A DNA stretch of 64,000 nt, from assembly GCA_963575745.1 (NCBI GenBank), contig CAUYUJ010000114.1, forward strand, positions 930,001 through 994,000, in the 5' to 3' direction. Positions 1 to 58,206 of the stretch are shown one piece after another. The notes beneath the pieces were generated by a model. It saw only the letters and a program-made list of their open reading frames with translations. It was not told the DNA's origin and did not search any database. A program made the translations under genes and the position numbers. Source of the stretch: Prorocentrum cordatum. Lineage: Eukaryota. Numbering within the stretch: position 1 is the first letter of the stretch; each line of letters opens with the position of its first letter.

Positions 1-2754
1 TGGACAAGACAGGACAAACAGGTCAACAATTTCCGTACTACTACATCAGGCGGACCCACCTGGAATACTGTGGAACGACGGATTACATACGACACTGACA
101 ATGGCGACGTCGTCCGCGACGAGAACGTCAAAGGCGTGACAAACAAAGAAATACTGTATGCCAAATTACCTGGTGGGCCACGTGACATTACTACGGTACT
201 ATACTACCGTCAACTACCACAACAGCATGATGGAGAAGAACGTGCTTCGGTGTTTGTGGATAATGAGGGAACCGACTTTGGGACTTTGAACCCGCTTATA
301 CGCAAGTTCACCCAGTCGGTAGCAATACCAACCATGCCACGTGAGACCAGCTACACGCCGGCACACAGAGATAAAATACCAGATTCGGCATGGTCACGCC
401 CAGCACTAGTTACCAGAAACCTGAGTAAGAAAGAAGTTGCCGCAGAACCACGTGCACAAGAAGCCCTGCGAAAAGAATACGAGAGATAGGAAAAGAAACA
501 AACATGGATGTTGGAGACTGTTGCAGAAAAAGCTGATATTGAGTCACAAGCTATCCGCAAGGGAACAAAGGTGCATGTCTTCAATATCTTGGAGTTATCT
601 TCAGTCAAACATGAGGAACTTCCTCCTGATCTACGTAAATTCAAGGGCAGAGTGGTGGTTCAGGGCAATACAGGCAAAGATGAAACTGGTTTGGCCGCCA
701 TATTCGCCGACGCCGCTTCCAGTGCTTCGCATATAGAGGCTTCCAAACTTTGCGATGCTACTGCGTTATTGCCGCAATATGCGGGAGAGCAAAGTGACGC
801 ACCTGGAGCCTACACGCAGGCATTACTATACGGCGACGGACGAATTGATCCAGTTGATACTTGGATTACTATACCTAAATGGCGACAACCGACATCATGG
901 TCAAAATACAAGAACCCAGTGTGCCGATTGCGATTGGCACTATACGGACACCCTCTCGCAGGTGTCTTTTGGGAACGAAAATGCCGCACATGCTTGGAAA
1001 GCGTCGGTTTCGAGCCTATTTCAGGATGGGAATGCGTATGGAGACACAACAAACTGGGACTGATACTTTCAGTATATGTGGACGATTTTAAATTGGCCGG
1101 CCCAGCTCATAATCTACAGACTGGCTGGGATTATATTCGCAAAAGCGGTATCGATTTGGATCCACCTACCCCATACTCACAATATTTGGGTTGTGGACAA
1201 CAAGCATATGATGTACCGCAGAACATCTTCGACAAAAGAATGTCCACAATACGCCCTATGCTACCTGCACACAATGAGAAAGATTACAATACGGCCAAAC
1301 ACGTTCGTGGTATTCGACATGATTTGCTTGGTTTTACAGATCAGTGTATTGAGCGATACCTGGAATGCGCCTCCAAGCGCGCCCAGGGAGCAGGGTCGCG
1401 TCGGAAACGATCCGACTCGCCGAGGGCTTCGCGATCCAAATCGCCATCCTCCTCCGGGTCGGTCGCCAGACCTACCAGTGTGCTCAATGCACGGCCGCGA
1501 TCATCCAGTCCAGCAAAATCGGTCGACACGACATCTACCAATACCATGCCCGCCACATACCATGACCTACCCGACGCAGAGACCCCTGGCATCGGGGACA
1601 CCTCCTTCACTGAGTCCGACTATTCAGACGAGGGCATCCTCGGCCAGGACGCGGCAAGTGTACTAATGAAGATCCTGTACTTGGCACGTTGCTGTCGCTT
1701 CGATCTTCTACATCCGGTATGTATGTTGGCCAGAGAAATTACCAAATGGAATGCTACATGTGACAAACGTCTACATCGGTTGATATGCTACATCAAAACG
1801 ACGCGTACACATTGCTTACACGGATGGATAGGCGATTCGTCAGACAAGTTATCCATCATGCTCTTTACTGACGCCTCGTTCGCTGGTTGCATTACATCAT
1901 CCAAATCCACTACCGGTGTTTTTGCTGCGCTTGTTGGACCCAATACATTCTTTCCAGTCAACGCTGTATGTAAGAAACAAACGGTTGTTTCACATTCATC
2001 TACTGAATCTGAGATCGTTGCTCTCGATTCCGCACTACGACTGGAAGGGTTACCACTACTATCATTCTGGGAAGCCGTGGTGGGAGTTGCCAAAACACGC
2101 AAAGAGAAGAATGCATGCCTGAGCTGCCATCGACACGTCGACCCGGCGATGTGTCCCACATTGGCAGCCAAAAAGAAGCGTAAACCATCGCCTCGCAAGG
2201 CACCCCCTACACGGGGATCTTCTCCTAGCCGTAGGCAACTACCGCTAAATACGGATTTACCTACGACTCCAAAGAGACGTACGATATCCCATGAAGGTAC
2301 TGTACTACACGTGGATCCAGAGCCAGCTCCAGAGATCAGTGCACCCAAAGTACGTCTTATCGTCCTGGAGGATAACCAGGCCGTTATCAAAATTGTCCAA
2401 CAGGGACGTACACCAGCTTTTCGTCATCTTCATCGTACTCATCGTATCAATCTGGATTGGATATGCGAAACATGCCACTTTGAACATATCGAGCTTAAAT
2501 ACGTAGGAACAAAAGAGCAGATCGCAGATATGATGACCAAACATTTCGAGACAAAGAAAGCAGACCTTTGGAAGGATCTCTTGGAACACTCGCTTATCTT
2601 TCCCGTAACTCCGATACAATGTCCTCCGATACGAGGGCCTCGGAGGCCCGACGGCTTACCTCATGAAGCGGAACCTCCTAAATTGAATGGATGCCCAGAC
2701 ATATGCAAGATATTGTTGGCGGAAAAAGAAAGATGGGGCGAGGTAGGATCATAA
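1..2754 (+). pseudogene. pol: Copia pol: reverse transcriptase (RVT_2-type) + RNase H, interrupted by an in-frame TAG at 487-489
   Basis: RT motifs KFKGRVVVQGN, QSDAPGAYTQA, RLRLALYGHPLAGVFWE and SVYVDDFKLAG (YVDD 1075-1086). RNase H motifs FTDASFAG (1864), HSSTESEIVAL, EDNQAVIK, RHLHRTHRI and TKEQIADMMTK. Frame +1 is open from base 1 and reads EYER*EKKQTW across the stop, where a Leu is expected. Confidence 0.93.
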
Positions 2755-3885
2755 TGCGGATTTCAGTGTGTTGGGCAAGCTAACCACGAGGGACTATGTG
2801 CATGCATGTACCACATTGGCGTACCAGCCGCAGATATTGCGTCGCGCACACCTCGTTCACGCGCACGTTCACCGCGCGGTAGACATCCCCGCCATCCTCC
2901 CTCACCTCCACGAGATGCAGAGAGAGTTAGGACATTGATTATTCGTTCATACCGCAGCAATTTTACGACTCGAGCTGCAAAGCTTACAAGCATCCTGTTC
3001 GCCGCTTGCGAGGCGAATATAAGTGAGATCGGTTCTAATCCCGACCCCCCCATCCACGAGATGGATCAGGCACAGCCGCTCAACCTCGTTGGCTGGCCCA
3101 TCGGCTACGACAAGGAGTACGACCCGAACGCCAGGGACGATGACCGCGTGGGCTTCGCGTACCACGCTCAAACTGGTCGTCCTCGTGATCCCGAAGATGG
3201 TTACATATACATACATCAACGGCGTGCCGATCGAAGCGGAGAGTTCGATCTTCGTGTACCCGACGAATCTTCTATTCGTGAACTTGCCCGCTTCGCGTCC
3301 GTCGAGGCTAAGAAATGGGCCAATGCCGAGAGTGGATCCGTCGGCGGCAACGCCAACTACGAGTACAACGCGTTCACAGCTACGCCGTGGCTATCATGCA
3401 TGCGTGCTATGTGTATGATTTCCAGCCTTTTCAATCGTAATCCTTCAGTACAAGAAAGTGTTCGTGGACTACATGATCACTTGAACGCGGTGATCCCAGG
3501 ATCGCACCGCAAACGTCCACCAGAAAACTTCACGACAATGATACTGAAGACGGAGCGGATGATGATTCACAACGATTGGTCCAAAATTGGCAGTGCAGTA
3601 CTGGGACAATACACCGAGGACAGCGTTACGGATACGCAAAGATACTACAACAATGGTCTGTGTGCACCATCCGATGTATACCAGAATGGATTGGTAACGC
3701 CATGCTATGCTCCTAAAATTGATCGTGCAATGGCCAAGCTACCTACTCGTCCACCTGGCATCGCCAGGACATCGGGTACATCTGGACACATCGGCCATAT
3801 TGTTGAAGATAACTTGGTCACCAACATGAGAGCATTTTCCGACCTTAGCCAAACAAACAAATTCCGCCGCAAGCTTACTACATAG
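2755..3885 (+). CDS. Cargo segment 1 of the copia extension; unknown function, Cys/His cluster at its start
   Basis: In frame with pol directly after TAA 2752-2754 (ORF track 2806..3885). Complex, protein-like composition. No family recognised. Confidence 0.6.
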   Translation, partial: CGFQCVGQANHEGLCACMYHIGVPAADIASRTPRSRARSPRGRHPRHPPSPPRDAERVRTLIIRSYRSNFTTRAAKLTSILFAACEANISEIGSNPDPPIHEMDQAQPLNLVGWPIGYDKEYDPNARDDDRVGFAYHAQTGRPRDPEDGYIYIHQRRADRSGEFDLRVPDESSIRELARFASVEAKKWANAESGSVGGNANYEYNAFTATPWLSCMRAMCMISSLFNRNPSVQESVRGLHDHLNAVIPGSHRKRPPENFTTMILKTERMMIHNDWSKIGSAVLGQYTEDSVTDTQRYYNNGLCAPSDVYQNGLVTPCYAPKIDRAMAKLPTRPPGIARTSGTSGHIGHIVEDNLVTNMRAFSDLSQTNKFRRKLTT

Positions 3886-5553
3886 CTGACTGCGCGCGGA
3901 GGCTTTGGAAGTATCGGATCAAACACCAAGACGGTGGCAACACCATCCGACCATCCGAATGGTTGGGTGGCGATAGTGGACGATCCACATGATACAGAAC
4001 GTACCTATCGTTGGACACCATACAACGAGGGCAACGACTTCTTCGGCGAAGCCGCTGACCAGATCGGTTCGAATGACCCTGGCCTTACTCCTGGTAATGA
4101 TGTTGACCCATTTGAGCTGGACCACGCAAAATACAGTGCCTTCTGTGGTGGTCGCTTGGTGTCTACCCTACTATCAGACAATGGGTGGCACTCCCTCATA
4201 CAAGAGGACTTGGGACTACTATTGCATCATGCGTTTGGGCCATCGGGTCACGCGTACAAATGGACCAACTTGTATACTGACTCAGCATGGATCATGCAGC
4301 CCAAGAAAGGGGCCAAGAGTGCAAAACACAAGAAGTATCCTACTTTCGGCATCGACGAGCTCAACGCTGCCCAGAAGAGAATCGACCTCGCCAATGCATC
4401 AAATACTGCTCTTGTACCTCTATTTATGCCGTGCCTCAACCGCGCGGAATACATGGGCGGCGCTACTCTTGAGCATTTGTCGACCATTATCCGCGACGAC
4501 ACCATGATGTGGGCATTCTCCTTTGGCAATTATAGGGAATGGTTCAGACAAAATGACACGCCGATCGGTCAAGATTGCGTTCTCTTGCCTGAAGCTGGTT
4601 ATGAAGACATACGCTATGGTATGGAAGAACTACGCAAGCAACGTTTCGAGAAAGAAGATAGCCGTACCAACGCTATTCTCAACAATCAGTTTGAGAACAC
4701 TCTCGAGCAGCGCAATATGATCAGGAAGATCCGCGAAGCCAGAGGCCTCATGTTCCAAAGCGACAACGCTTCCACCAAGAAGTGGCGCGAGTTGAATGAG
4801 ACTATCTGGGATTATTGGGCCAATGATTTCCCATCATACGTAAAACAAAGACACTATTGCAGGGGACTCAATGCCATGGTAGTATGGAGCGCGAACGACA
4901 TCGCATGTGCCAATCATGGACAACACACCATCGACATGCGCCGACATCAGAATCGTGCTCCTACTAACGTATACGAGCTCCAAAATATGGAATGTGAGGG
5001 CGGCGTCCCGACGCTCATGCCCGTGCACGTGCTCGTGGACGTGTCACGTTTTGTCGACGTGATGCAGCATTTCCGCTGCCCCACGGTCATGGGACCTGGA
5101 AAAGCAGCGCAATGGGGCGCACATCCGAATTTTGATCACCACACGAGCGACCTGATCAATATCATGCAGAACCGTGGTATCACTGTTCTTCCATCCGACC
5201 ATTGGGTGGATACGTACGACAGGATTACCCCACAGGCTTGGCACGCCAAGCAGAATAACCATAACATGGCAATGTTTACAACGCAATTCTGCGACGCAGT
5301 ATGCTATCGCAATTTCTGCGCTTTGACACAGTCCCTGCCTTCTCAGCCATATCCATTCAGGCCACCATTGCTGACTGCTGTCACGGATGATCAAGCCTAC
5401 ACGCAGGCCAAAGAAATCATGGCAGCCTTCGATTTCAGAGAAAAGTTGACAAACGAATGGAAAAGAGACCTCAGCCTCACAACGTTGATGACACAGACGG
5501 CAAACGAGATGGCTCATTGTGCGTGGATGGCGTCATGTGCCGAGGGCACATAG
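3886..5553 (+). CDS. Cargo segment 2: SGNH/GDSL hydrolase (esterase)-like domain
   Basis: Four SGNH blocks appear in the correct order: LYTDSAW (Ser, 4276-4284), MGGATL (Gly, 4456-4467), VVWSANDI (Asn, 4885-4899) and QAWH (His, 5242-5244). The canonical block V Asp of DxxH is not in its usual position. Confidence 0.6.
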   Translation: MTARGGFGSIGSNTKTVATPSDHPNGWVAIVDDPHDTERTYRWTPYNEGNDFFGEAADQIGSNDPGLTPGNDVDPFELDHAKYSAFCGGRLVSTLLSDNGWHSLIQEDLGLLLHHAFGPSGHAYKWTNLYTDSAWIMQPKKGAKSAKHKKYPTFGIDELNAAQKRIDLANASNTALVPLFMPCLNRAEYMGGATLEHLSTIIRDDTMMWAFSFGNYREWFRQNDTPIGQDCVLLPEAGYEDIRYGMEELRKQRFEKEDSRTNAILNNQFENTLEQRNMIRKIREARGLMFQSDNASTKKWRELNETIWDYWANDFPSYVKQRHYCRGLNAMVVWSANDIACANHGQHTIDMRRHQNRAPTNVYELQNMECEGGVPTLMPVHVLVDVSRFVDVMQHFRCPTVMGPGKAAQWGAHPNFDHHTSDLINIMQNRGITVLPSDHWVDTYDRITPQAWHAKQNNHNMAMFTTQFCDAVCYRNFCALTQSLPSQPYPFRPPLLTAVTDDQAYTQAKEIMAAFDFREKLTNEWKRDLSLTTLMTQTANEMAHCAWMASCAEGT

Positions 5554-8500
5554 CCGGCATCACTGCCTGCCGAGACAGGCGACACCACTGAGCCTACTCC
5601 TGGAATGTCGACACGTACGCCAGCACCTGACCCTGGCGATCCTGACCAAACCCTTCCTGATAATGATCCATGGGTTATCGCATGCAACGACTTATTCCAG
5701 TACCTCATGCTGTTGATCAAAGAATACCCTGGGGCTTGGGCATCTTGGCATTCTCTTGAGAAAGATGAACTCCTACATCCCAAGATCGTCAAAACGGTTG
5801 AAGATGCACATGCAGTTACTTGGGTTGTATTCGAGCAATTCTTACATCAGATCAAAGATTTGGATGGAGATGATAATGCGACCAAAGCAAGAATCACTGC
5901 AGAAGATAACAGATTGTCTTCTCACCGCATCGGCCCAGCTGCCGAGAACGAGAAGAACATCGAGGCATGCAAAACATTCTTCAAGCAGAATGCACTGGAT
6001 CGAGTTGCTTTGGGTCATGACCCTGATGTTCCTACATCCGTATGGAAGGCAGCTGCCGACACAGCACAGCCAGCCCCACCAGGCCCATTGCCTGATCCAC
6101 TGCAACCTGGACCGCAATCGATAAAAGTGTCGCAACCAGCGACTCCAGAACCCAAAGCAGAACAACAACCAGCAGATCAGCTCCCAAAAGCTGAGGCGGT
6201 ATCGATCCCTGACGACGGCACCGGCCTTGAGGCCATGGAGCTGGAGGCAACTCCTGCCGAGGAGGAGCCTTCTCCACATGAGATGAATATATTGCCATGG
6301 CAGGACAGCTGTGAGCGTTCCATGCACGAGGATACCAGCAAGATCGGGATCTTCCACAACTCATGCATTATTCGCGAGTGGAAGCTACAAGCAGACGTCA
6401 AAGATGACCATCCATACATGTGCCCAATGTTGCGGGGCACGCGTGCGACCAATGGATTAACCTGCATGGGAGACCATGAATGGTACGAGCAGCGATTGCA
6501 TGATGATAGTGCGATTGCTCATGCGCCTGACATTGCACAGTCTGGTTGCTTCCCAGAGTGGAAATGGATATCATTACCACATTACGACGATGTACGTTAT
6601 GGTCCCGAGCTAATTGAGGATGAGTGGCTGGGAACAAACAAATACATGAGCAAAGACATTACGACCATGTTACGCCATGAGATTCACTACAAAAAGTTTT
6701 GGATCAACCAATTTCATGACAGACGTATCAATATCTGGGAGAAAGCAACAAAGAATGAATGGAAGATTCCAAGCAATTGGAAATCCTTTAAAGAGATGGT
6801 CGAATGGAAATTCAGAGATCGCAAAGACAAACACAATGGACCATCCATGGAAGCGGCAGTGGCACATTTTAAGAAAGATGGTGACAATGATGGATATACC
6901 GATTGGAACGACTGCTATCCGATATTCATTATTCGCGCGTTCCAGAAGCATATTGATTCGCAGAAAAACAGAATCGAGATATATGCCAAGCCGATCCCTG
7001 AGGGAAGTGACCCCAGCTCTTTTGACTGGAACAGCGTCATTGCTATTCGGTGCGTTGGTGGTCACAGCTGTGTCAATCCATCTTCCAAGCCATGGAATAT
7101 GGGATGGGAGAGCCTACAGTGGACAGATATTAAATATCTTCATCACGGCACAGCATCCCGCGCTTGGAAGAACATATTGGGGACAGGGATCATTCCTGGA
7201 TACGTTGATCCAACTTCTCAGAGAGACAAATATCATAAACCATCACAGCGATCTGAGGCATTCTTTAGTTCTAGCACATATTTGAACAATGTTCAAAATA
7301 ATCCACACACTTCAGTGGAATCGTACAAGTTCAATAACTACAAGAACGAGGTCGAGCTGGTGATCAACATGGAAATCGCCACAAAAGCAGGTTGCAGATG
7401 TTGGTTGGGTGCTCAGGGCGCTATCATGACAGAGGACGTGGTACCCGCTGCGGCAATTATTGCAGTTCGCCGCCTCAAACCACACCACATGCATGGCCAG
7501 CAGTTATGGCCAGATGGCGACCCATGGGACTACCCGCCATTGGCAGCAAGAGAGCCATTGAGCAAGTACGAGATGTGCGCCTGTCTTCCTGGAGAGCTCA
7601 TCGACGACCCTCCTGGATTAGCACCTATCGACCCCGACCAGAACATGGAGCCTCCAAGGACGACGCCAGCGTCAGCACCTTCGGTCAAGCTGGGGGAAAC
7701 CCCTGCTGGCCGTACATCTGCAGAAGACGCCTTGGATGAACAAATAGTCCGCGCTATGATTCGGGAGACCAATCACAAAGCAGATGATAAAGAATGGTTA
7801 ATTGCATTGTCATGCTGTCGCGAAGCTCTTCGACCGATCACATCGAAGATCATGCAAAAAGATTGGGACCGTCGCCCTGCATTTAATGATGTTCGAATGG
7901 GAGACTTCATTGTGGTCAAGAATTGGGGTTCTACCAAATGCTTTCATTGCGACAACCACTGGCCCAAAGGCAATCACAATACCAAGATTGCCTTGACCAA
8001 GGGACACATATATGGTCCAACCATCCATTTCGGCATCTTCGACAAGTTCTTTGCGGTACAAGTACCTATTCTCAACTACGGTTTACGATGGGTAAACATA
8101 TGGTATAATGACAAAAGCATGCCCCTCAAGGGCGTTGTCTTTGCATTACCGATTCGTACCGAAGAACACGCCATTGACCCAACGTGGATGGAGACCGTCC
8201 TGAAAGGTCCGACATCATGCAGCGAAAAGATACTCCAGCACAAGACTGATGGCAGTTCACCATACCTTGGCATGCCGAGCATTCATAGACCACGTATTCC
8301 GCGTACACCGCCCAGAAGGCCCGCTCCTCGGACACCCGATCCAGACGAGCTGGTGGCCACACCTGCCGAGGACAACGCTCAGACGGGCGACAATCCTCGA
8401 CAGACTGCAGCATCATCGCGTGATCCTTTGATCACCATAATCGTGGACATATCGAACATAACGCTCACCGCTGATGAGAAAGCTGCGAACGACAACATGA

Positions 8501-10731
8501 GAGCAGACCTCTCGGCAGACATCCAAGCAGATGAGCAGATTGAGGCAAGCATCCTCGACAACATCATTGACCCGCCATCGGACTTCCTTAACCATCCAGA
8601 TTACGACCCCGACGAGGATTCAAGAAGGATTAAACAGTCTGATGACTGCCGTGTGTATTGTTGGACATCGGAGCTGCTGGTGGATTTGCCTATGATCAAG
8701 ATGAAACAGATCATCGAGATACACAGTGGCGCAGACAGAATTGTAATGGACAAAACTCAGTCACATTTACAAATTGAAATTCGATTTGGATCGAAAGCAT
8801 GGAATGCGGAGTCATACCAATTGAACTACAATCATACCCACAAATGGGCACGTGACTTACCAAATTGCAGTGCAGATCGTTTCTTCAAAAAGTTGGTACA
8901 CTACCTCGACCCAGAGACTATCGAGGAGTCGACCAAAGGCATCTTTCAATGGATCTCCAAAGTATACCAGAACATCTTGAAAGATAGTATTGCGGAGCTT
9001 CCAGATTTCGCCAAAGAGGCCATCCATGAGAACCATCCTGCACTTCAGGCATTGCGTGACCTATTCAAAAATTGTACTGCGACATACGGTAATCCAGATT
9101 TTCCTGTATGGGAAGAGCTGGTGGAAACACCTGCTGCGCCTCGTGAGCAGGGCGCTGAGCAGGATATTCCCCAGGATCCAGGCAGCGTTGCGTCTGCAGC
9201 TCCCGATCAGGAAACTATGGTACGTATCATAGCCGAGCAGACGGGACTCAAGCGCGAGGAGGGCGACAACGAGGCTACCTTGCAGGAGAAAGCTCGCCGT
9301 CTTCGTGAGGAGAACGCATGCCATGGCGGTGCCGAGGATACCGACAATGCCAAGATAGAGTACAAAGGACTGCCAGGGGAAAGATTGTCTAGGATCGAGA
9401 TCGAGGGTTTAAGTAGATCGATCGCTTCCCGACCGAACACCGAGACCAATCGTGAGGCGATCAATCAGATCTGTCAGAGCCTCGCTCGCGGTCAGGACAC
9501 CCGCTGGGGATCCCGCGATCACCTCACTTCGGAAGGGGCCCCCGAGACGATCCTGCATCCCATGCCGCTCTGTCAGAATTGCGGTCGAGATCTGTCCCTC
9601 GGGATTGTCACAGGTGACGGCGCACTTTGTGATATCTGTTGGCAGTTTACCGTGGCCGTAGGCGCCACGGGTAAGAGCACCGCCACACAGAGCGATCTTG
9701 CGTACCTCCAGAAGCTGACGAATTGGATCAAGACGACACTCTCGGAGGACCACATCGCGAGATACATGAAGGACGGTGCGCACGTCATTATGACGGGTGC
9801 GCGATCGCATGCAGACAAGAGAAAGATCAGTTGCGGAGATTGGCCAATGTGTCCAAAAAGAGGCATCAGAAGTGGGTCGAAGCAGGTAGCCCTCCTGCAC
9901 ATGAGTGCAGACCTGATGGGCGAAGCCGACGACGACCGACCTCTGTATTACCCATTCGCCAATCTCGTACAACGCTTTCTCAACGACCTCAAGTTCCACC
10001 ACCAAATGACAGGTGCCCGCGTGAAAGTCGGCAAGAAGCCCTGGACAGTGGAGGACATGCGCGATGCGTGGGACATCCTCGACATCAGCATTAGGACAGG
10101 ACAGGCTGGTCGGAGGAAACGGTGGCTGAACGAGGGGCGCATCGACAGGCAGACGCGGCAGGCCCGCGGACTGGTCACGGTTTCTCCCCCTAGAAGGGAC
10201 GGAACCCGTGAACAGCTCACTCAGCGTAAGCTTGCCGCGATTGCCAATGAGTTGTTAGGCTCCCTCGATCCGGCACATATCGACCAGAGGGGGGTTGATA
10301 CAGGGATGAGAGCCGATCCCGATACACAATCCCACCAGTCCGATGATGCCATGGAGCCGCCGCGCCATCCGCGGCCGCCGCCGCGCCCTGCTCCTGGCGA
10401 TGCTGCTGCGTCCAGCGCCTCAGGCGCGACGGACTACACGCCCGCGGGGCCGCGTGCCAAGAGAGCGCGTACATCAGATTACGCCGCGTACTGGCGTGAT
10501 GACCTTGAGGACAGCTACTGGGGCCTCAGGTACTGGAGTTACTACATCAACTGTTGGATCTACATTGCGATCATCAACGATGAGTACGTTTACATCCAGG
10601 ACATCACGTACAACGATTGGTTTCGCAACTGGATCCCGAGAACGGCTTGGGAGACATTCACGACGAGCTACGCGACGTACAACGGCCAGAGGATGTGGGA
10701 CCGCAGGTTCTACAAGAACGGCAACGCGTAG
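5554..10731 (+). CDS. Cargo segment 3 (1708-aa ORF from ATG 5605): multidomain protein with a Tpt1/KptA RNA 2'-phosphotransferase domain, a C4 zinc finger and a W/Y-rich C-terminus
   Basis: Long uninterrupted ORF in frame with pol, ending in a tandem TAG TGA (10729-10734). Globular blocks are separated by Pro/acidic linkers. Confidence 0.85.
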   Translation, partial: PASLPAETGDTTEPTPGMSTRTPAPDPGDPDQTLPDNDPWVIACNDLFQYLMLLIKEYPGAWASWHSLEKDELLHPKIVKTVEDAHAVTWVVFEQFLHQIKDLDGDDNATKARITAEDNRLSSHRIGPAAENEKNIEACKTFFKQNALDRVALGHDPDVPTSVWKAAADTAQPAPPGPLPDPLQPGPQSIKVSQPATPEPKAEQQPADQLPKAEAVSIPDDGTGLEAMELEATPAEEEPSPHEMNILPWQDSCERSMHEDTSKIGIFHNSCIIREWKLQADVKDDHPYMCPMLRGTRATNGLTCMGDHEWYEQRLHDDSAIAHAPDIAQSGCFPEWKWISLPHYDDVRYGPELIEDEWLGTNKYMSKDITTMLRHEIHYKKFWINQFHDRRINIWEKATKNEWKIPSNWKSFKEMVEWKFRDRKDKHNGPSMEAAVAHFKKDGDNDGYTDWNDCYPIFIIRAFQKHIDSQKNRIEIYAKPIPEGSDPSSFDWNSVIAIRCVGGHSCVNPSSKPWNMGWESLQWTDIKYLHHGTASRAWKNILGTGIIPGYVDPTSQRDKYHKPSQRSEAFFSSSTYLNNVQNNPHTSVESYKFNNYKNEVELVINMEIATKAGCRCWLGAQGAIMTEDVVPAAAIIAVRRLKPHHMHGQQLWPDGDPWDYPPLAAREPLSKYEMCACLPGELIDDPPGLAPIDPDQNMEPPRTTPASAPSVKLGETPAGRTSAEDALDEQIVRAMIRETNHKADDKEWLIALSCCREALRPITSKIMQKDWDRRPAFNDVRMGDFIVVKNWGSTKCFHCDNHWPKGNHNTKIALTKGHIYGPTIHFGIFDKFFAVQVPILNYGLRWVNIWYNDKSMPLKGVVFALPIRTEEHAIDPTWMETVLKGPTSCSEKILQHKTDGSSPYLGMPSIHRPRIPRTPPRRPAPRTPDPDELVATPAEDNAQTGDNPRQTAASSRDPLITIIVDISNITLTADEKAANDNMRADLSADIQADEQIEASILDNIIDPPSDFLNHPDYDPDEDSRRIKQSDDCRVYCWTSELLVDLPMIKMKQIIEIHSGADRIVMDKTQSHLQIEIRFGSKAWNAESYQLNYNHTHKWARDLPNCSADRFFKKLVHYLDPETIEESTKGIFQWISKVYQNILKDSIAELPDFAKEAIHENHPALQALRDLFKNCTATYGNPDFPVWEELVETPAAPREQGAEQDIPQDPGSVASAAPDQETMVRIIAEQTGLKREEGDNEATLQEKARRLREENACHGGAEDTDNAKIEYKGLPGERLSRIEIEGLSRSIASRPNTETNREAINQICQSLARGQDTRWGSRDHLTSEGAPETILHPMPLCQNCGRDLSLGIVTGDGALCDICWQFTVAVGATGKSTATQSDLAYLQKLTNWIKTTLSEDHIARYMKDGAHVIMTGARSHADKRKISCGDWPMCPKRGIRSGSKQVALLHMSADLMGEADDDRPLYYPFANLVQRFLNDLKFHHQMTGARVKVGKKPWTVEDMRDAWDILDISIRTGQAGRRKRWLNEGRIDRQTRQARGLVTVSPPRRDGTREQLTQRKLAAIANELLGSLDPAHIDQRGVDTGMRADPDTQSHQSDDAMEPPRHPRPPPRPAPGDAAASSASGATDYTPAGPRAKRARTSDYAAYWRDDLEDSYWGLRYWSYYINCWIYIAIINDEYVYIQDITYNDWFRNWIPRTAWETFTTSYATYNGQRMWDRRFYKNGNA
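6646..7473 (+). CDS. kptA: Tpt1/KptA-family NAD+-dependent RNA 2'-phosphotransferase domain (PTS_2-RNA-like)
   Basis: Family motifs in order: SKDITTMLRH (R 6673, H 6676), DG-Y, KNRIE (R 6970), IRCVGGHS (R 7048; consensus IRAxQGHS), YLHHGT (7141-7152), NILGTGIIPG, RSEAFFS (consensus RxxxHLS), LVINM, and CWLGAQGAIMTEDVVPAAAI (consensus FxxSxNGVxLTxxxPPxYI). Confidence 0.88.
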
Positions 10732-10734
10732 TGA

Positions 10735-11120
10735 GTCGGCCGCAAGGCCCACCGCTCAAGGCACGAACTTCAATATAACCAAAGTTCGTCTTGAGCGGTG
10801 GCTATTTCATATTTTAGGCCACTTCATTATATAACAAAAGTGGCCACACACACTAATACCTTTTGCGATCACCGAGGCAGCCTCCTAAGGAGCAACGCCA
10901 ACGGGAGTCGCCAAACCGAATTTTTACACATGATTTTCGTGTTCATCAACACGACATTTTGTCTGGCCAGACATTCGCTTTCACACAATGATGTGTTTCA
11001 TTTCAAGATCGTGTTCGTCAACACGATCTTAGCATGCATATTGTAACAGTTTAAACCTGATTGCGTCGAGAATAATCTGATAGCTGGTGGCAACACCTGC
11101 CTCGCAGAAGCGAGGCAGTT
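10735..11120 (+). promoter_or_regulatory. Structured 3'UTR of the retroelement: series of stem-loops
   Basis: GGCC-GCAA-GGCC at 10738-10749; long stem at 10750-10800; stem at 10817-10845; TCGTGTT-CATC-AACACGA at 10937-10954; palindrome at 10960-10973; 11-bp stem at 11005-11030; 9-bp stem at 11097-11118. Confidence 0.7.
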
Positions 11121-11237
11121 TGCATGTTGCTTTAACGCTCAGATCTTCTTTCTCCGCCCACCCTTGTCTCATTCTTCTCCGCCCTCGAGTGCCGAAGCGT
11201 TTTGGGGGGCGCACCGAGGGGGCACCAATGCGTGCTT

Positions 11238-11253
11238 GGAGAAGAAAGGGGGA
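11238..11253 (+). other. Polypurine tract (plus-strand primer) candidate
   Basis: GGAGAAGAAAGGGGGA: 16 consecutive purines, ~500 nt after the final stop, at the position expected for an LTR element PPT. Confidence 0.7.
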
Positions 11254-11600
11254 CTTAGGGTGCTCGTTCTAACTTCACTTTGCAGCTGTGGCTTCGCTGA
11301 TTTCAAGCCCAGCTGCCTCCTGACTTAAGGACTAAAGGAGTTCAGAGGTTACGGATTCCCTTCCTCTGTCCCCGAGTCCTGCCTTCAAGGGCGGGATTCG
11401 GGACGGGGGGCGTGAATGGAACCCGTGTAATACCCTCATATTTACTCCTTATCCTTACCTCTCCTGCGCCTGGCCGTTTGGGCTCAGGCACTGAGATAGA
11501 TCGATCAGACCTTGATCGTGCGGGAGGGAAAGATATCCATCTATCCCTCCTTCTCTCTACCAACGGATCAGGGGTTCTGTACCCTTGTACTTCAACCCCA
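11254..11600 (+). repeat. Probable 3' LTR (boundaries approximate)
   Basis: Follows the PPT directly, and host-type MITE sequence resumes at ~11655. The 5' LTR is outside the window, so it cannot be confirmed. No clean TG...CA termini were seen. Confidence 0.45.
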
Positions 11601-11654
11601 TACACACCGGGAGGCGGGTCGATGGCACTCGACGGCGCGCACGTTCTGCACGAA

Positions 11655-11850
11655 CGAGATGGGCACGGAAAGAATGGGTACAATGCCCAACAGCAGTTCC
11701 TGTTCATTTTGAACAGGACTCGCTGTCCGCGCCGCCGCGGCCTGTGTCCATTTGAGACAGAAGGCCGCCAAACCAACAGCGGCCGCTGTTGGTTTTGGAC
11801 AACATTTGTTGTTGGGCGTTGTACCCATTCTTTCGGTACCCATTTCGGGT
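11655..11850. mobile_element. MITE-like inverted-repeat element
   Basis: Imperfect TIRs: cgagatgggcacggaaagaatgggtacaatgcccaaca ... tgttgggcgttgtacccattctttcggtacccatttcg. Confidence 0.6.
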
Positions 11851-12406
11851 GTCCACACGTGGAGTTGGCGCGAGGGGGGAGTCCTTCTGAGAAGGCGGGG
11901 GGCTTCTTAGAAGACAGGGGTTTTCTAAGAAGGCTTTCTCCCAATTCGGCTTTGCCCAGCGATTCTGTTGGTGGAGAAACCCGTGGATGCCGGACCCGCT
12001 TGGGCGGGGGTTCTCCGCGGGGGAACCCGGCTTTGTTTCCTTACGCGGCGGTGCCCTGGGATTCCCCAGTCCTGTTTCTTTACAGTGGCGTTCTTCGGGA
12101 TTCCCTGTGTTCCCCGGGCCCCTGGCAGCGCTCCTTCTGGGCGCCCCACGTTGCCTCGATGCGGCGCCCTCCGCTGACGCGTGCCAGCGCCCGTGTGCGG
12201 AGCGCTCAGGGGGGAAGGCCTTCTCAGACGACTCAGAAGGCCCCCGGAAGGCCTTGGAATCGCATGGCGGTTTCGAGGACGTGCAGTGTGAAGTTCAGGC
12301 GCTTGTGCGGACAGAAAAAGGCTCAAGAGGCTTCCAGCCTTCGGGTCGCCTCTCGGAAGGCCAGAGGGCTTCTGAGAAGCCCCACCGCCTGAGATGCCCT
12401 GGGGGC

Positions 12407-12788
12407 AGGAGGAGGAGGAGGAGGAGGAGGAGGAGGAGGAGGAGGAGGAGGAGGAGGAGGAGGAGGAGGAGGAGGAGGAGGAGGAGGAGGAGGAGGAGGA
12501 GGAGGAGGAGGAGAGGAGGAGGAGGAGGAGGAGGAGGAGGAGGAAGAGGAGGAGGAGGAGGAGAGGAGGAGGAGGAGGAGGAGGAGGAGGAGGAGGAGGA
12601 GGAGGAGGAGGAGGAGGAGGAGGAGGAGGAGGAGGAGGAGGAGGAGGAGAGGAGGAGGAGGGAGGAGGAGGAGGAGGAGGAGGAGGAGGAGGAGGAGGAG
12701 GAGGAGGAGGAGGAGGAGGAGGAGGAGGAGGGAGGAGGAGGAGGAGGAGGAGGGAGGAGGAGGAGGAGGAGGGAGGAGGAGGAGGAGA
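12407..12788. repeat. (GAG)n trinucleotide tract; similar (GAG)n/(CCT)n tracts at ~14178-14582, 17220-17363, 21805-22080, 24590-24780, 29930-30158, 45170-45566
   Basis: Directly visible. Source of the poly-E/G/R/P/S/L ORFs in the track. Confidence 0.95.
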
Positions 12789-18480: not shown

Positions 18481-19797
18481 GAGAAAGAGGCCCGCGCTGG
18501 GGCGAGAACGCCATCCTGAACGACGGAGGCAAAACACCGATCCGAAAATGAGGCCCACGCTGCAGCGGGAGCACGATTCGGAACGATTCGGGAGCAGAAA
18601 TGAGGCCGGCGCCTCAGCGAGAGCAGCATTTTGAAAAAAAACGCAGGCGAAAACCCATTTCCCGGGAATCCTGTGTGTAAAAAAACATTACGCGGGGGGG
18701 CGGTCGAATATTCCCCGGACGCCATCAGGGGAAGAGGGAGAGTAGTATTCAGATTGAGTAATTGTATAGGGAAGGGGGGGGGGGTCGGAGGGCCCCAAAT
18801 GGTTCGGTGACCACACCGTGCGGTGAGCCAGTGGGTATTCGGGGTCACCGCACGGTTTTGGGACTCGCGGGTCGTTCTCCGAGGATGTCTCGGGCGACAG
18901 GGGCCTCTGGGGTCCCAAGACCGTGCGGTGACGGACCGTGCGGTGAGGTTTTGGGGGATTTCGAGGTCACCGCACGGTCAGTCACCGCACCGTTTCGGGA
19001 CTCCCAACAGAGCCTCGGAGCAACGATGGGGGTGGGGGTGGGGGATACACATTGCTGACCTCTAAGTCTTCGAAAGTTCTTTGATCTTTTGGGGGGCCAA
19101 GATGCTTTCATTTCTAATACCTTTGTGGGCCCCCGAAGCGGCAGGGCCGTTTTTTCACCGTTTCCAGAAACATGTCCCTTAAACATGAAAGCGACAAAAA
19201 ACGGCGACCGGGGGGATTGGGAAAGGGGGGGGTACGAAATTTGTTGCATGCAGCTGGTTTCGGCCTCGCCGAGTGGCTCAGTCCTCGATGCATAGCCGCC
19301 TCAGGCGTCAGGAGGCGCCGGGAAAATCAGCTACGTGAGCTGATGCCCGAGTCGTCCCGATCCCGGAGGGGCCGCGTGATAGCCAGACAGCCTCGGGGCA
19401 ACGACGGGGGTGGGGGATACACATTGCTCATGTCTAAGTATTCGAAAGTTCTTTGATTTTTGGGGAGGCCAATATCCTTTCACTTCTAATTGTTCTATCC
19501 TGGGCCTCTTCCTGGCTCCCCAGTTCGATTTGCCTAAGGGGTTCTTTCTTGGTTAAAGGTTGGCGCCTCGGAGTGGTACGTTGCCCGTTCCTCGGAGATT
19601 CCACGGATTCCTCGGGTTCCCCGCCCCTGGTGCCTTTTATTGTTACGTCGCCCGTTTCCTGGAGGTTCTTCGGGTTCCCCTGGTTCCTCGGGATCCCCGC
19701 CCCCCGTGCCTCCTATTGTTACGTTGCCCGTTCCTCGCAGGTTCCTCGGGTTCCTCGGGTTCCCCGGGTTCCTCGGGTTCACCGCCCCCGGTGGCCC

Positions 19798-20062
19798 CAA
19801 GCAATGCCAAGCAATGCTTAGCAATGCCAAGCAAATCCATCCCATGCCACGCAATAGCAAGCAATTCCAAGCAATGCCAAGCAATTTCAAGCAATACCAA
19901 GCAATACCGAGCAATGCCAACCCATGCCAAGCCATGCCAAGCAATGCCAAGCAATGCCAAGCCATGTCAAGCACTGCCAAGCAATGCCAACCCATAAAAA
20001 GCAACGCCAAGCAATGCCAAGCAGTGCGAAGCCATGCCAAGCGATGCGCCCAGCGATGCGCC
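19798..20062. repeat. Degenerate 10-bp minisatellite (GCAATGCCAA)n
   Basis: About 25 tandem variants of gcaatgccaa. Confidence 0.9.
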
Positions 20063-21024
20063 CACGCAATACGCTTTCCCCTAATTGGGGTCGCGCCAGG
20101 TCCATCCGAAAAGACAGCTGTCGGTGCCACCAAACGAGCGAACTGCTAGAGACATGTCCACCAGTTTGGCGCGAACGGGTACATGCGATACCCCTGAGCG
20201 GCTCCTGCCTGGAGTGATCAAACGCTAGGCCTGCTGCATCGCGATGGTCACGAGCGAATAGGAGTATGAGGATCGAGCATCAGCGATTCAATGTACCAGT
20301 GGCAGAGTGTGGGTGGGTCTGACTGTGATTGATCAGGGTGTGAGTGGTCTTGGTGTATGGGTCTGAGTCTGTATCAGCTGAGTACGAGTAGATCTGAGAG
20401 TGAGCGGTCTGAGTATGAGGGAGTCTGAGTGGGTCTGAGTACCAGTTGGTCTTAGTGTGTGCGTGTGTGTAACATGAATATGAGTGGGTCTGAGTGTGAG
20501 TGAGTCTCAGTATGAGTGAGTCTGGATATGAGAGGGTGGGTCAGTGAGTCTGGGTATGAGGGAGTCTGAGTGTGAGGGATTCTGGGTGTCAGTAATTCTG
20601 ACGATGCATGGGATGAGACGGAAGTGAGGAGGCGAAATCGTCACAGGGATAACAAAGACACCACACTTGCGATATGGGGAGGGAAGCGGCGGCTCGGATA
20701 TTTCGAGCGACGCTCGGAGATGCGAGTTGAGAGGGTGGTCGAGGCCGATGGGTCCCTTGGCGAAGGAAAGGAACACAGCTCCCCTGGGTTGTGGCCGCCC
20801 TGCATGGGAAGCGTGCTTGCACAAGGCAGGAGGGAGCGGGGGACGGTCGGCCAGCGAGGGAACGGGAGGAGGAGCAGGAGGAAGAGCAGGAGGAGGAAGG
20901 AGAGGAAGAGGAAGAGGAGGGAGTGGTGGACAGGCGGCCAGAGAGGGGAGAAGAGGGAAGACTTCGGGCGCCACGGGCAGATCGCCGCGCCCCGCTCTCC
21001 CGTGATCGGCTTCTCGAGCTAAGG

Positions 21025-56349: not shown

Positions 56350-57417
56350 AGGATGTCTCAGGCGGGGCGCTGTTTCAGCACCCCTAAGGGGAGCCGCCGA
56401 GGGGTGTTGCACGGTCCCGTTCGCGGCCGTTTTGTGGGGATGTCTCAGGCGGTTTGCCTGTTTGTCTTGCCAACATCCTTCGCTTTCGGAGCAGATTTGG
56501 AGGATGTCTCGAGCGATGCGCTCATTTTCACCCCCCAGGTGGGCCAGATTTTGAGGATGTCTCGATCGGTTTGCTTGTTTTGGTGGCCAGGCTCGTGGCC
56601 CTAAGGGGAGCCGCCAGGGGTGTTTGCACGGGCTCGTTCGCGGCCATTTTGTGGGGATGTCTCAGGCGGTTTGCTTGTTTCTGGGCCCAACATCCTTCGC
56701 TTTCGGAGCATATTTGGAGGATGTCTCGAGCGAGGCGCTCATTTTCACCCCCCAGGTGGGCCAGATTTTGAGGATGTCTCGATCGGTTTGCTTGTTTTGG
56801 TGGCCAGTCTCGTGGCCCTAAGGGGAGCCGCCAGGGGTGGTTGCACGGGCTCGTTCGCGGCCATTTTGCGGGGATGTCTCAGGCGGTTTGCTTGTTTCTG
56901 GGCTCAACATCCTTCGCTTTCGGAGCAGATTTGGAGGATGTCTCGAGCGAGGCGCTCATTCTCACCCCCCAGGTGGGCCAGATTTTGAGGATGTCTCGAT
57001 CGGTTTGCTTGTTTTGGTGGCCAGGCTCGTGGCCCTAAGGGGAGCCGCCTTGGGGTGTTGCACGGGCACGTTCGCGGCCATTTTGTGGGGATGTCTCAGG
57101 CGGTTTGCTTGTTTCTGTGCCCAACATCCTTCGCTTTCGGAGCAGATTTGGAGGATGTCTCGAGCGAGGCGCTCATTTTCACCCCCCAGGTGGGCCAGAC
57201 TTTGAGGAGGTCTCGATCGGTTTGCTTGTTTTGGTGGCCAGGCTCGTGGCCCTAAGGGGAGCCGCCAGGGGTGGTTGCACGGGCTCGTTCGCGGCCATTT
57301 TGTGGGGATGTCTCAGGCGGTTTGCTTGTTTCTGGGCCCAAAATCCTTCGCTTTCGGAGCAGATTTGGAGGATGTCTCGAGCGAGGCGTTAATTTTCACC
57401 CCCCAGGTGGGCCAGAC
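56350..57417. repeat. 217-bp tandem repeat, ~5 copies
   Basis: ccctaaggggagccgcc recurs at 56382, 56599, 56816, 57033 and 57250. Confidence 0.95.
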
Positions 57418-58206
57418 TCCAGGAGGCCCCAGGAGACCACATGAGGTACCAGGAGGCTTCAGGAGGCCACAGAAAGACTCAAGAGGCCACAGGATGTCCC
57501 AAGAGGCTCCAGGAGGCCCCAGGAAGCTCCAGAAGGCCTCAGGAAACCACAGGAGGCCCCAGGAGGCAACAGGAAGCGCCAGGAGGCCTCGGAAGGCAAC
57601 AGGAGGCCCGAGAGGCCCCATGAGCAGGAGGCCTCAGAAGGCAACAGGAGTGGCTCCAATCCCATGTGTTTTACGTATGCTCCTATCGATTGGGCCTCAC
57701 CTGGAGCACGATTCTTTGATGTTCACGTATGTTTCTATATATGGTCCTTCTCCTGTGTACACAATCCTAAATGTTTTACTCATGTTCCTATATATTGGGC
57801 CTCTCCTGGGGCACGAGTCCTTGGTGTTTTACGCGTGTTCCTATATATTGCCCTTCTCCTGTGGCTCTAATCCGCAATGTTTTATGTACGTCTGTTGCTA
57901 TAGATTGCGCCTCCCCTGGGGCACGAAACCTTCCTAGGAGGTCCCAGGAGGTCCCAAGAGACTCCTGGAGACCCCAGGAAGCCCCAGTAGGTTTCAGGAG
58001 GCCCCAGGAGGCCCCATGCTCATGCACAGAGACGCGCTCGTACCACTGAGGCTCATTCACACTCCAATTCATTCGCAGTTAGATTGATGTCCAGACCGTC
58101 ACAACTGAAGCCCGTTAATATTCGAAAGCTCTTGCGCCTAGACATTCACGGCGGACAGGTCCATGCGAGTAGATGCACATATGGGGAGCTCCACGCAGTG
58201 AATAAT

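Follow-up and report, generated by a model that had tools for sequence, protein, structure and literature searches.

Positions 1-11250 of a 64,000-nucleotide stretch of Prorocentrum cordatum DNA (assembly GCA_963575745.1, contig CAUYUJ010000114.1, positions 930,001 to 994,000 of the forward strand; hereafter the window) very probably hold the 3' two-thirds of a dead copy of a Ty1/copia-type long terminal repeat (LTR) retrotransposon, in whose ancestor the pol gene ran about 2,640 codons past the cysteine motif behind RNase H, in one frame, to a tandem TAG TGA. The reason that gene finders report five open reading frames (ORFs) here is that the copy has acquired four nonsense substitutions (Leu to TAG, a sense codon to TAA, Trp to TAG and Leu to TAG). 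The functional ancestor would have possessed a pol gene without a stop after RNase H and the Cys motif, comprising at least 3,576 codons within the window.

A single reading frame from pol to a tandem stop

All five ORFs in the ORF list (70-489, 508-2754, 2806-3885, 3934-5553 and 5605-10731) lie on the plus strand in frame 1. Translating straight through positions 1-10734 in this frame yields 3,576 sense codons, and a count of stops returns internal ones at 487 (TAG), 2752 (TAA), 3883 (TAG) and 5551 (TAG) and no others; the pieces of the frame that they delimit are referred to below as segments 1 to 5. Base composition leads to an expectation of approximately 164 stops per 3578 codons, and the same interval contains 85 and 172 stops in the two other plus-strand frames and 101, 94 and 184 in the three minus-strand frames. 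Directly downstream of 10734 stops return to frame +1, at 10792, 11044, 11326 and so on. Frame +1 of 1-10734 is coding, far above chance, and passes through all five pieces without a frameshift.

Internal stops

Protein relatives covering the four stops have sense residues at each of them. The column of stop 1 holds Leu in 13/13 relatives (11/11 in the alignment, plus P0113 and P0112), and its likely origin, judged from this column, would be a change of TTG to TAG. Stop 2 is matched by S, E and L in P0001, P0005 and P0006, which are the 3/3 aligned relatives reaching that place and provide a comparison at the protein level only; the stop lies one residue upstream of the first Cys of the window's Cys motif, after which the frame stays open. 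A further relative, P0017, which is 68% identical over RNase H, apparently carries R at this place, as read by eye. Stop 3 corresponds to W in P0173, P0195 and P0190 and to F in P0121 (4/4 relatives sense), and the column of stop 4 is Leu in 6/6 fragments that cross it (P0132, P0153, P0161, P0162, P0185 and P0194), all of which continue into segment 5, P0162 by 65 residues.

Sister copies were also compared at the DNA level. Contigs of four public runs (X1, X2, X9 and X3) were placed on positions 1-12500 at 85% identity or more and their depth, which is not a copy number, was summed in 30 bins. By this measure position 3884 is G rather than A, giving TGG in place of stop 3, in 637.5/649.5 of the contig depth in X1, 1370.7/1370.7 in X2, 14/14 in X9 and 151.9/151.9 in X3, so that this stop is missing from 98-100% of the depth in 4/4 runs.

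A stop that serves readthrough would be conserved among functional relatives, and in every relative counted above the codon is instead sense. Because the stops are not conserved, match different residues and in two cases fall within conserved motifs, we conclude that they are neither readthrough signals nor a sign of a variant code, but nonsense mutations of the window copy. A preliminary description of this DNA, made from its letters, had joined the five ORFs into one open frame with four single stops and a TAG TGA end, which the translation and the stop counts bear out. It had further proposed an ancestral single frame continuing some 2,650 codons beyond RNase H, or alternatively a readthrough product. 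The ancestral frame gains support from the sense residues at all four stops, from the private nature of stop 3 in DNA and from relatives that read through both the segment 3/segment 4 and the segment 4/segment 5 joints, whereas readthrough is left unsupported, two of the stops lying inside conserved motifs instead of linkers. Sense codons in sister copies, which that description had suggested looking for, are seen directly as TGG at stop 3, and at stops 1, 2 and 4 they are known from protein relatives only.

Reverse transcriptase, RNase H and copia identity

Segment 2 matches the reverse transcriptase (RT) family RVT_2 (PF07727) in Pfam with 28.4 bits and an E-value of 1.5e-6, just below the cut-off of 31.6, and two of its relatives exceed that cut-off (P0207 with 33.4 and P0008 with 33.3 bits). 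The RT motif YVDD is located at 1075-1086, and RNase H spans approximately 1759-2550 with DAS, ESE and EDN motifs at 1867, 1999 and 2365. This segment has 236 homologues at 30-68% identity (best E 1e-147), many of them carrying PF07727; among them are one named Symbiodinium sp. CCMP2592 and one annotated as 'polyprotein of Ty1/Copia retrotransposon'. An integrase core aligns upstream of RT in relatives, as evidenced by a match to rve (E 3.2e-4) at 38-106 of P0015 and a weak match to rve_3 at 802-827 of P0216. The window begins inside the element, with the 5' LTR, gag, protease and integrase outside it, and the order of integrase before RT is thus read from relatives only. By homology the element is a Ty1/copia-type LTR retrotransposon.

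Copia elements are usually described as compact, with a pol gene that ends at RNase H. The full-length relatives P0216 (2,117 aa) and P0213 (2,030 aa) have their RT near residue 1,600 and run for some 420 residues more, ending approximately 25 residues past the Cys motif, and P0001, P0005 and P0006 terminate 2-3 residues past their CxxC...CxC motif. At 2746-2754 the window reads G-S-stop-C, with Gly where relatives have the first Cys of CxxC; this may reflect damage to the Cys motif in the present copy, or CGFQC may serve as the first Cys pair of the lineage.

Modules of the extension

Past the Cys motif the frame of the window continues for about 2,640 codons, which Pro-rich linkers split into modules (Table 1). 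Segments 3 and 4 together have 79 matches, mostly short fragments that are present in databases as unnamed 'hypothetical proteins'. The joint between these two segments is bridged by P0121 (749 aa, 42% identical), of which residues 1-295 align with module A and then run into segment 4. Within module B, the WSxND motif of the SGNH-like domain is well conserved in the family (S in 7/7, N in 7/7 and D in 6/7 members); neither a conserved GDS-type Ser nor a standard DxxH was recognised in this domain, and the Pfam lipase and GDSL families gave no match in 24/24 family members at E-values up to 1. A weak Pfam row for Tox-ART-HYE1 in segment 4 (E 0.088) was dropped, being present in only 1/24 family members. 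A 1,551-bp metagenome contig (L001) encodes a relative, 39% identical, that covers segment 4 and the beginning of segment 5. Its coding sequence is frameshifted and split over three frames (3-251, 412-1302 and 1061-1549), which makes it of no use for judging the stops; from its sequence it represents a distant copy of this extension that has decayed or was mis-assembled.

Segment 5 is the longest piece, with Pro-rich linkers at residues 1847-1903, 2000-2075, 2490-2574, 2742-2803, 3031-3061 and 3431-3489. A search with its 1725 residues found no homologue among proteins of 948-3019 aa, shorter and longer proteins not having been searched, a null result that gives no evidence of segment 5 standing alone. 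The region between 6601 and 7500 matches PF01885, the Tpt1/KptA family of NAD+-dependent 2'-phosphotransferases, with 26.7 bits (E 6.9e-6; cut-off 26), over profile positions 70-176 only. Three of the four members of the Arg-His-Arg-Arg tetrad and the HGT motif that are known from Tpt1 (PMC6333775) have counterparts in the sequence: LRH at 6670-6678 (residues 2224-2226), the Arg in IAIRCVGGHS (IRxxGHS context, near 7039, about residue 2350) and HHGT at 7141-7152 (residues 2381-2384), the fourth Arg not being placed. Approximately 75 extra residues separate the LRH and IRxxGHS motifs. The three best Atlas clusters for this region carry PF01885 (scores 0.82-0.84), which we take as a lead only. 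Of the domains named in the preliminary description, RT-RNase H is thus confirmed and Cys motifs of a zinc-binding-like kind are present, while its Tpt1 call stands as a marginal one.

Searches of PDB sequences gave no relevant match, NCBIfam returned chance-level rows only, and an Atlas search with residues 60-270 of the 7501-10728 translation gave no usable match. No 19-residue window of the frame exceeds a hydropathy of 1.4, and there is therefore no env-like membrane segment.

Table 1. Features of the element and its 3' flank, in window coordinates
Feature	Position	Strand	Remarks
Integrase-to-RT linker of pol	1-486	+	Aligns between integrase core and RT of P0012, P0013 and P0015; no Pfam family
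Stop 1, TAG	487-489	+	Probable nonsense mutation of a Leu codon in the conserved 'EW.KL...W' motif, just upstream of RT
RT and RNase H (segment 2)	490-2751	+	Pfam RVT_2 and homologues
Stop 2, TAA	2752-2754	+	Immediately 5' of the Cys motif with which the pol of relatives ends
Cys motif C-x3-C-x9-C-x-C	2755-2805	+	Zinc-knuckle-like C-terminal motif of pol in relatives; regular-expression match; aligns with CxxCGF...CxC of P0001, P0005 and P0006
Extension module A (rest of segment 3)	2806-3882	+	Pro-rich linker, then conserved region without assigned function; no Pfam or NCBIfam family
Stop 3, TAG	3883-3885	+	Private TGG to TAG nonsense mutation
Extension module B (segment 4)	3886-5550	+	Conserved QED...HAxGPxGHA motif in N-terminal part; SGNH-like alpha/beta domain; long C-terminal helix
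SGNH-like alpha/beta domain	~4408-5325	+	Weak SGNH-like fold; conserved WSxND at 4885-4899
Long C-terminal helix of module B	5377-5550	+	
Stop 4, TAG	5551-5553	+	Probable nonsense mutation of a Leu codon where a Pro-rich linker begins
Extension segment 5	5554-10728	+	1725 codons; several modules between Pro-rich linkers
Tpt1/KptA-like NAD+-dependent 2'-phosphotransferase/ADP-ribosyltransferase domain, predicted	6646-7480	+	Pfam PF01885 marginal
C4 zinc-ribbon-like motif CxxC-x16-CxxC	9571-9639	+	Regular-expression match, a sequence pattern only
Aromatic-rich C-terminal tail	10480-10728	+	Last 83 residues 29% W/Y/F, against 8% in the whole frame
Frame end	10729-10734	+	Tandem TAG TGA (10729 TAG, 10732 TGA)
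Structured 3' untranslated region	10735-11045	+	Four or five hairpins
Candidate polypurine tract GGAGAAGAAAGGGGGA	11238-11253	+	16-base purine run
Candidate 3' LTR	~11255 to ~12100	+	Depth jump; boundaries approximate

Decay of this copy and abundance of the family

Part of the stretch is contained in 18 run rows from 13 studies, which represent three labelled organisms as well as marine, estuary and freshwater metagenomes, none of them recorded as RNA. All 30 bins of 1-12500 are covered in 4/4 of the runs analysed here, including the bins of segment 5, and the summed contig depth reaches hundreds to thousands. In X1 alone 17,035 contigs were placed, 4,733 of which are at least 99% alike. From these figures the family seems abundant and young. 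The nearest protein fragments (P0122, P0162, P0173 and P0190, 32-85% identical) are labelled in EukProt as Pyramimonas sp. CCMP1952, a green alga.

Among the sites listed, there are 38 coding sites at which the window disagrees with a large share of the other contigs, in most cases with nearly all of them. These private changes are spread evenly over the three codon positions (13/12/13) and are mostly non-synonymous (27 against 11 synonymous), a pattern that is neutral decay of the window copy. One of them replaces the Asp of the RNase H motif 'FAGD', which relatives conserve. Approximately 4% of random substitutions in this frame would create a stop, and four stops therefore fit about 100 private changes, a divergence below 1%.

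Insertions and deletions follow a different distribution. Among the best 12 of 58 indel rows, 9 fall within the 630 bases behind the terminal stop and 3 within the 10.7-kb frame, of which two are losses of 3 and 12 bases within a Pro-rich linker. This is the pattern expected from selection for an open frame up to 10728. Frame-changing indels between segments in sister copies had been named in the preliminary description as the observation that would count against a single frame; of the three rows within the frame two are multiples of 3. A loss of a single base at 9912 is taken up below.

Alternative explanations

The joint between RNase H and the extension is the weakest link of this reconstruction, resting on the window's own open frame, and a number of observations, at the joint and elsewhere, weigh against it. 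A query across the joint (2452-3051) matched nothing among proteins of 110-350 aa, shorter fragments not having been searched. P0017, the closest relative near the joint, diverges after the place of stop 2 and, judged by eye, ends 21 residues further on without a Cys motif. As it differs upstream of RNase H too, it may be a broken copy; it is either that or a member of a lineage in which pol terminates at this point. RT-RNase H has about 2x the contig depth of the extension, which may reflect related copies that lack the extension or cross-mapping of other copia families. With regard to the stops, positions 488, 2752-2754 and 5552 are not among the 40 listed of 1,451 rows at which contigs carry another letter, and three of the stops are private by comparison with protein relatives alone. 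The Tpt1-like region exceeds the Pfam cut-off on one slice only, longer slices scoring 22.7 and 19.1 bits, and a single-sequence AF2 model of 6277-7500 has a mean pLDDT of 28.9. No 5' LTR, gag, protease or integrase is visible, the window starting within the element. Finally, one contig per run lacks one base at 9912, which would mark either a frameshifted sub-lineage or one half of a compensated indel pair. By depth this loss amounts to 387/468 in X2, 45.5/52.4 in X3 and 11.3/33.7 in X1, and the frame of the window stays open for 270 codons beyond it.

Several of these observations could be explained if the sequence behind RNase H were a separate repeat, either a mobile element or an endogenous viral gene, lying beside a truncated copia pol and in frame with it by accident or through a recent fusion in a sub-lineage. 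We consider this improbable, even though no relative clearly crosses the joint, full-pol relatives end right past the Cys motif, P0017 stops soon after the joint, depth is higher over RT-RNase H and segment 5 lacks a homologue of comparable length. The Cys motif of pol lies downstream of stop 2 and is followed by 359 open codons up to the private stop 3, and there is no LTR, polypurine tract or break in composition between RNase H and the extension. GC content is 49-52% throughout 1-10000, as against 57-70% in the bins from 12 kb on, and both a candidate polypurine tract and a jump in depth appear only past 11238. Cover at 85% identity or more is unbroken across 2503-2919 in all four runs, and indel rows are rare up to 10734 and frequent right behind it. 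A tblastn comparison of the P0017 tail with the window was dominated by Pro-rich matches. A scan of metagenome contigs with the joint protein returned no DNA locus, no locus of the element was found in viral contigs, and genome contigs gave none in two scans.

Two other explanations concern the nature of the stops. Were the stops functional, they would separate nested products made by programmed readthrough, or five cistrons that share a frame by chance. Such an arrangement could draw on the five pieces lying in one frame, separated by single stops and without a frameshift, on three of the four stops being TAG, on an ATG or GTG 21-54 bases past each stop and on the fact that three of the stop places are known in sister copies from protein relatives only. 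The corresponding residues in relatives are nevertheless sense and differ from place to place (L; S/E/L; W/F; L), stop 3 is absent from nearly all contig depth, stops 1 and 3 sit inside conserved motifs and not between domains, and this copy has accumulated many further private changes, most of them non-synonymous; we regard functional stops as very unlikely. Still further from credible, to the point of being negligible, is a variant nuclear code in which TAG and TAA are sense in the host, leaving the frame unbroken. The internal stops are all TAG or TAA and the final pair includes TGA, as such a code would have it, but the three TAG places are L, W/F and L in relatives, which one reassignment cannot give, and other copies have TGG in their DNA at 3883-3885. 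The frame moreover ends on a TAG ahead of its TGA, and holds only 4 such codons in 3,576 where a reassigned codon would be expected more often.

Predicted product of the ancestral element

The reading that we prefer, a decayed copy of a single extended pol, leads to a predicted product as follows. If gag, protease and integrase (about 1,300 residues by the measure of P0216) preceded the first codon of the window without a change of frame, as in that relative, the polyprotein of the functional element would have measured approximately 4,900 residues. Behind RNase H it would have carried a chain of two conserved modules without assigned function, an SGNH-like domain, a Tpt1/KptA-like domain, a C4 zinc motif and an aromatic tail, with Pro-rich linkers between them. 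By analogy with copia elements and with the single long ORFs of relatives, the whole would probably be synthesised as a single polyprotein and processed by its own protease, for which the Pro-rich linkers are plausible sites, or else flexible tethers. The Tpt1-like module might, in an NAD+-dependent manner, strip a 2'-phosphate from, or ADP-ribosylate a 5'-phosphate on, the RNA template, the tRNA primer or the cDNA ends of the element, and the SGNH-like module could have an esterase or membrane role, in parallel with the GDSL esterases of other retroelements, for which membrane roles have been proposed. A bolder reading, which we put forward tentatively and hold to be doubtful, is that of a recently active marine green-algal copia lineage whose polyprotein has about doubled to some 4,900 residues, and whose working Tpt1-type enzyme would modify the element's own nucleic acids, shielding RNA or cDNA ends from host nucleases or sensors.

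Comparison with known systems

In Symbiodinium the most abundant retrotransposons are, by one report, copia elements (PMC5890265). The element described here shares with Ty1/copia elements of marine protists an RVT_2-type RT followed by RNase H, with integrase upstream of RT in the relatives; it differs from them in the approximately 2,640 further in-frame codons, where the pol of relatives ends 2-3 residues past the Cys motif. In size the nearest counterparts are the Burro elements of planarians, giant gypsy-like LTR retrotransposons with an ORF1 polyprotein of 4,873 aa in S. mediterranea and 5,140 aa in D. tigrina (Arkhipova & Yushenova 2019, PMC6431247), to which the window element would be comparable if its 5' half is in frame (some 4,900 aa). 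Both combine many accessory domains in one very long LTR-retrotransposon polyprotein, and both are known from decaying copies with stop codons. Burro, however, is gypsy-type and animal-borne and has MATH/TRAF, BIR, ankyrin, BCL2-like and env-like domains between gag and protease, whereas the present element is copia-type and would be alga-borne, with its extra modules (Tpt1-like and SGNH-like) behind RNase H.

Esterases of the GDSL/SGNH type are encoded by ORF3 of LTR retrotransposons of bdelloid rotifers and by Athena/Terminon elements (PMC5408684; PMC6431247), and an esterase is also found in ORF1 of non-LTR elements (PMC3905857). As in the predicted module B, an esterase-type alpha/beta domain is there located downstream of pol, and a membrane-related role has been proposed for it in these sources. 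A nucleic-acid-modifying enzyme has been taken up by Pol in SymbioDIRS-Dnmt3 and SymbioLINE-Dnmt of Symbiodinium (de Mendoza et al. 2018, PMC5890265), which resemble the window element in having a host-type nucleic-acid enzyme in the ORF of the RT, proposed in their case to modify the element's own cDNA. These are DIRS and LINE elements with a cytosine methyltransferase, in contrast to the Tpt1-like domain of a copia-type element considered here, and the same report describes the copia elements of Symbiodinium as being without a Dnmt domain.

The described activities of Tpt1/KptA/TRPT1 are removal of a 2'-phosphate and ADP-ribosylation of a 5'-phosphate on RNA or DNA (PMC6333775; PMC12678800; PMC10415124). 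The window domain is similar to these enzymes in its match to PF01885 at profile positions 70-176, its R-H dipeptide, its Arg in an IRxxGHS context and its HGT motif. They are free proteins of approximately 180-230 aa, whereas the predicted domain in the window would be part of a polyprotein of at least 3,576 aa and has about 75 extra residues in the RNA lobe. Among the open-access papers listed in our searches, none links Tpt1/KptA with a retrotransposon by title or abstract, and no copia-type element turned up whose pol carries some 8 kb of additional coding sequence past RNase H with a Tpt1-like domain in it. Giant LTR-element polyproteins, GDSL esterase ORFs and enzymes fused into Pol are thus already known, and what appears to be new is a copia-type element with an extension of about 8 kb behind RNase H that includes a Tpt1-like domain.

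If this interpretation is true, a copia lineage with some 8 kb of conserved extra coding sequence rivals Burro, and giant retroelements can arise by the accretion of domains in the copia superfamily and in algae as well. The presence of a Tpt1-like domain points to NAD+-dependent chemistry at the ends of RNA or DNA as something that retroelements may perform; Tpt1-type chemistry in replication or counter-defence would, if borne out, be one not described for any retroelement. Recognition of scattered short 'hypothetical proteins' as parts of one transposon gene also allows algal genomes and marine metagenomes to be annotated more cleanly.

The 3' end of the element

The 311 bases that follow the tandem stop (10735-11045) are predicted to fold with a minimum free energy of -102.7 kcal/mol, compared with -66.5 +/- 5.5 for shuffled sequences (z -6.6). 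The listed indels of sister contigs are concentrated in the region just behind TAG TGA. Past the purine run further downstream, contig depth in X1 rises from 926 to 3828 and 25,942 and falls to 469 after 12093. The purine run and the region of raised depth would correspond to the polypurine tract and the 3' LTR of the element; a second copy of the LTR was not found within the window, and the 5' LTR would lie outside it.

The candidate LTR overlaps an inverted repeat at 11655-11847 with 72-nt arms that are 74% complementary, which includes a perfect 26-nt palindrome at 11770-11795. The bin 11677-12093 has a depth of 25,942 in X1 and 17,427 in X2, and the last coding bins of the element have a few hundred to about 1,300. 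Possibly a far more abundant short palindromic repeat overlies the candidate LTR, which may be an element similar to a miniature inverted-repeat transposable element (MITE) or a part of the LTR scattered as solo copies.

Remainder of the window

From 12350 to 64000 the window has a GC content of 55-70% and dense simple repeats. Rfam and tRNA scans of the window gave no match. Arrays of (GGA)n/(CCT)n are located at approximately 12.4-12.8, 14.1-14.6, 17.2, 21.2-21.6, 24.6-24.8 and 45.1-45.5 kb, and arrays of (GT)n/(GCGT)n at 17.9-18.5, 52.4-55.9 and 58.1-59.7 kb, with GC skew of up to 0.6. A 217-bp tandem repeat occupies 56382-57549, arrays with a period of 10 bp occur at 19767-20067 and 57401-58022, and copies of a 300-nt repeat are spaced 458-939 bp apart between 61494 and 63667.

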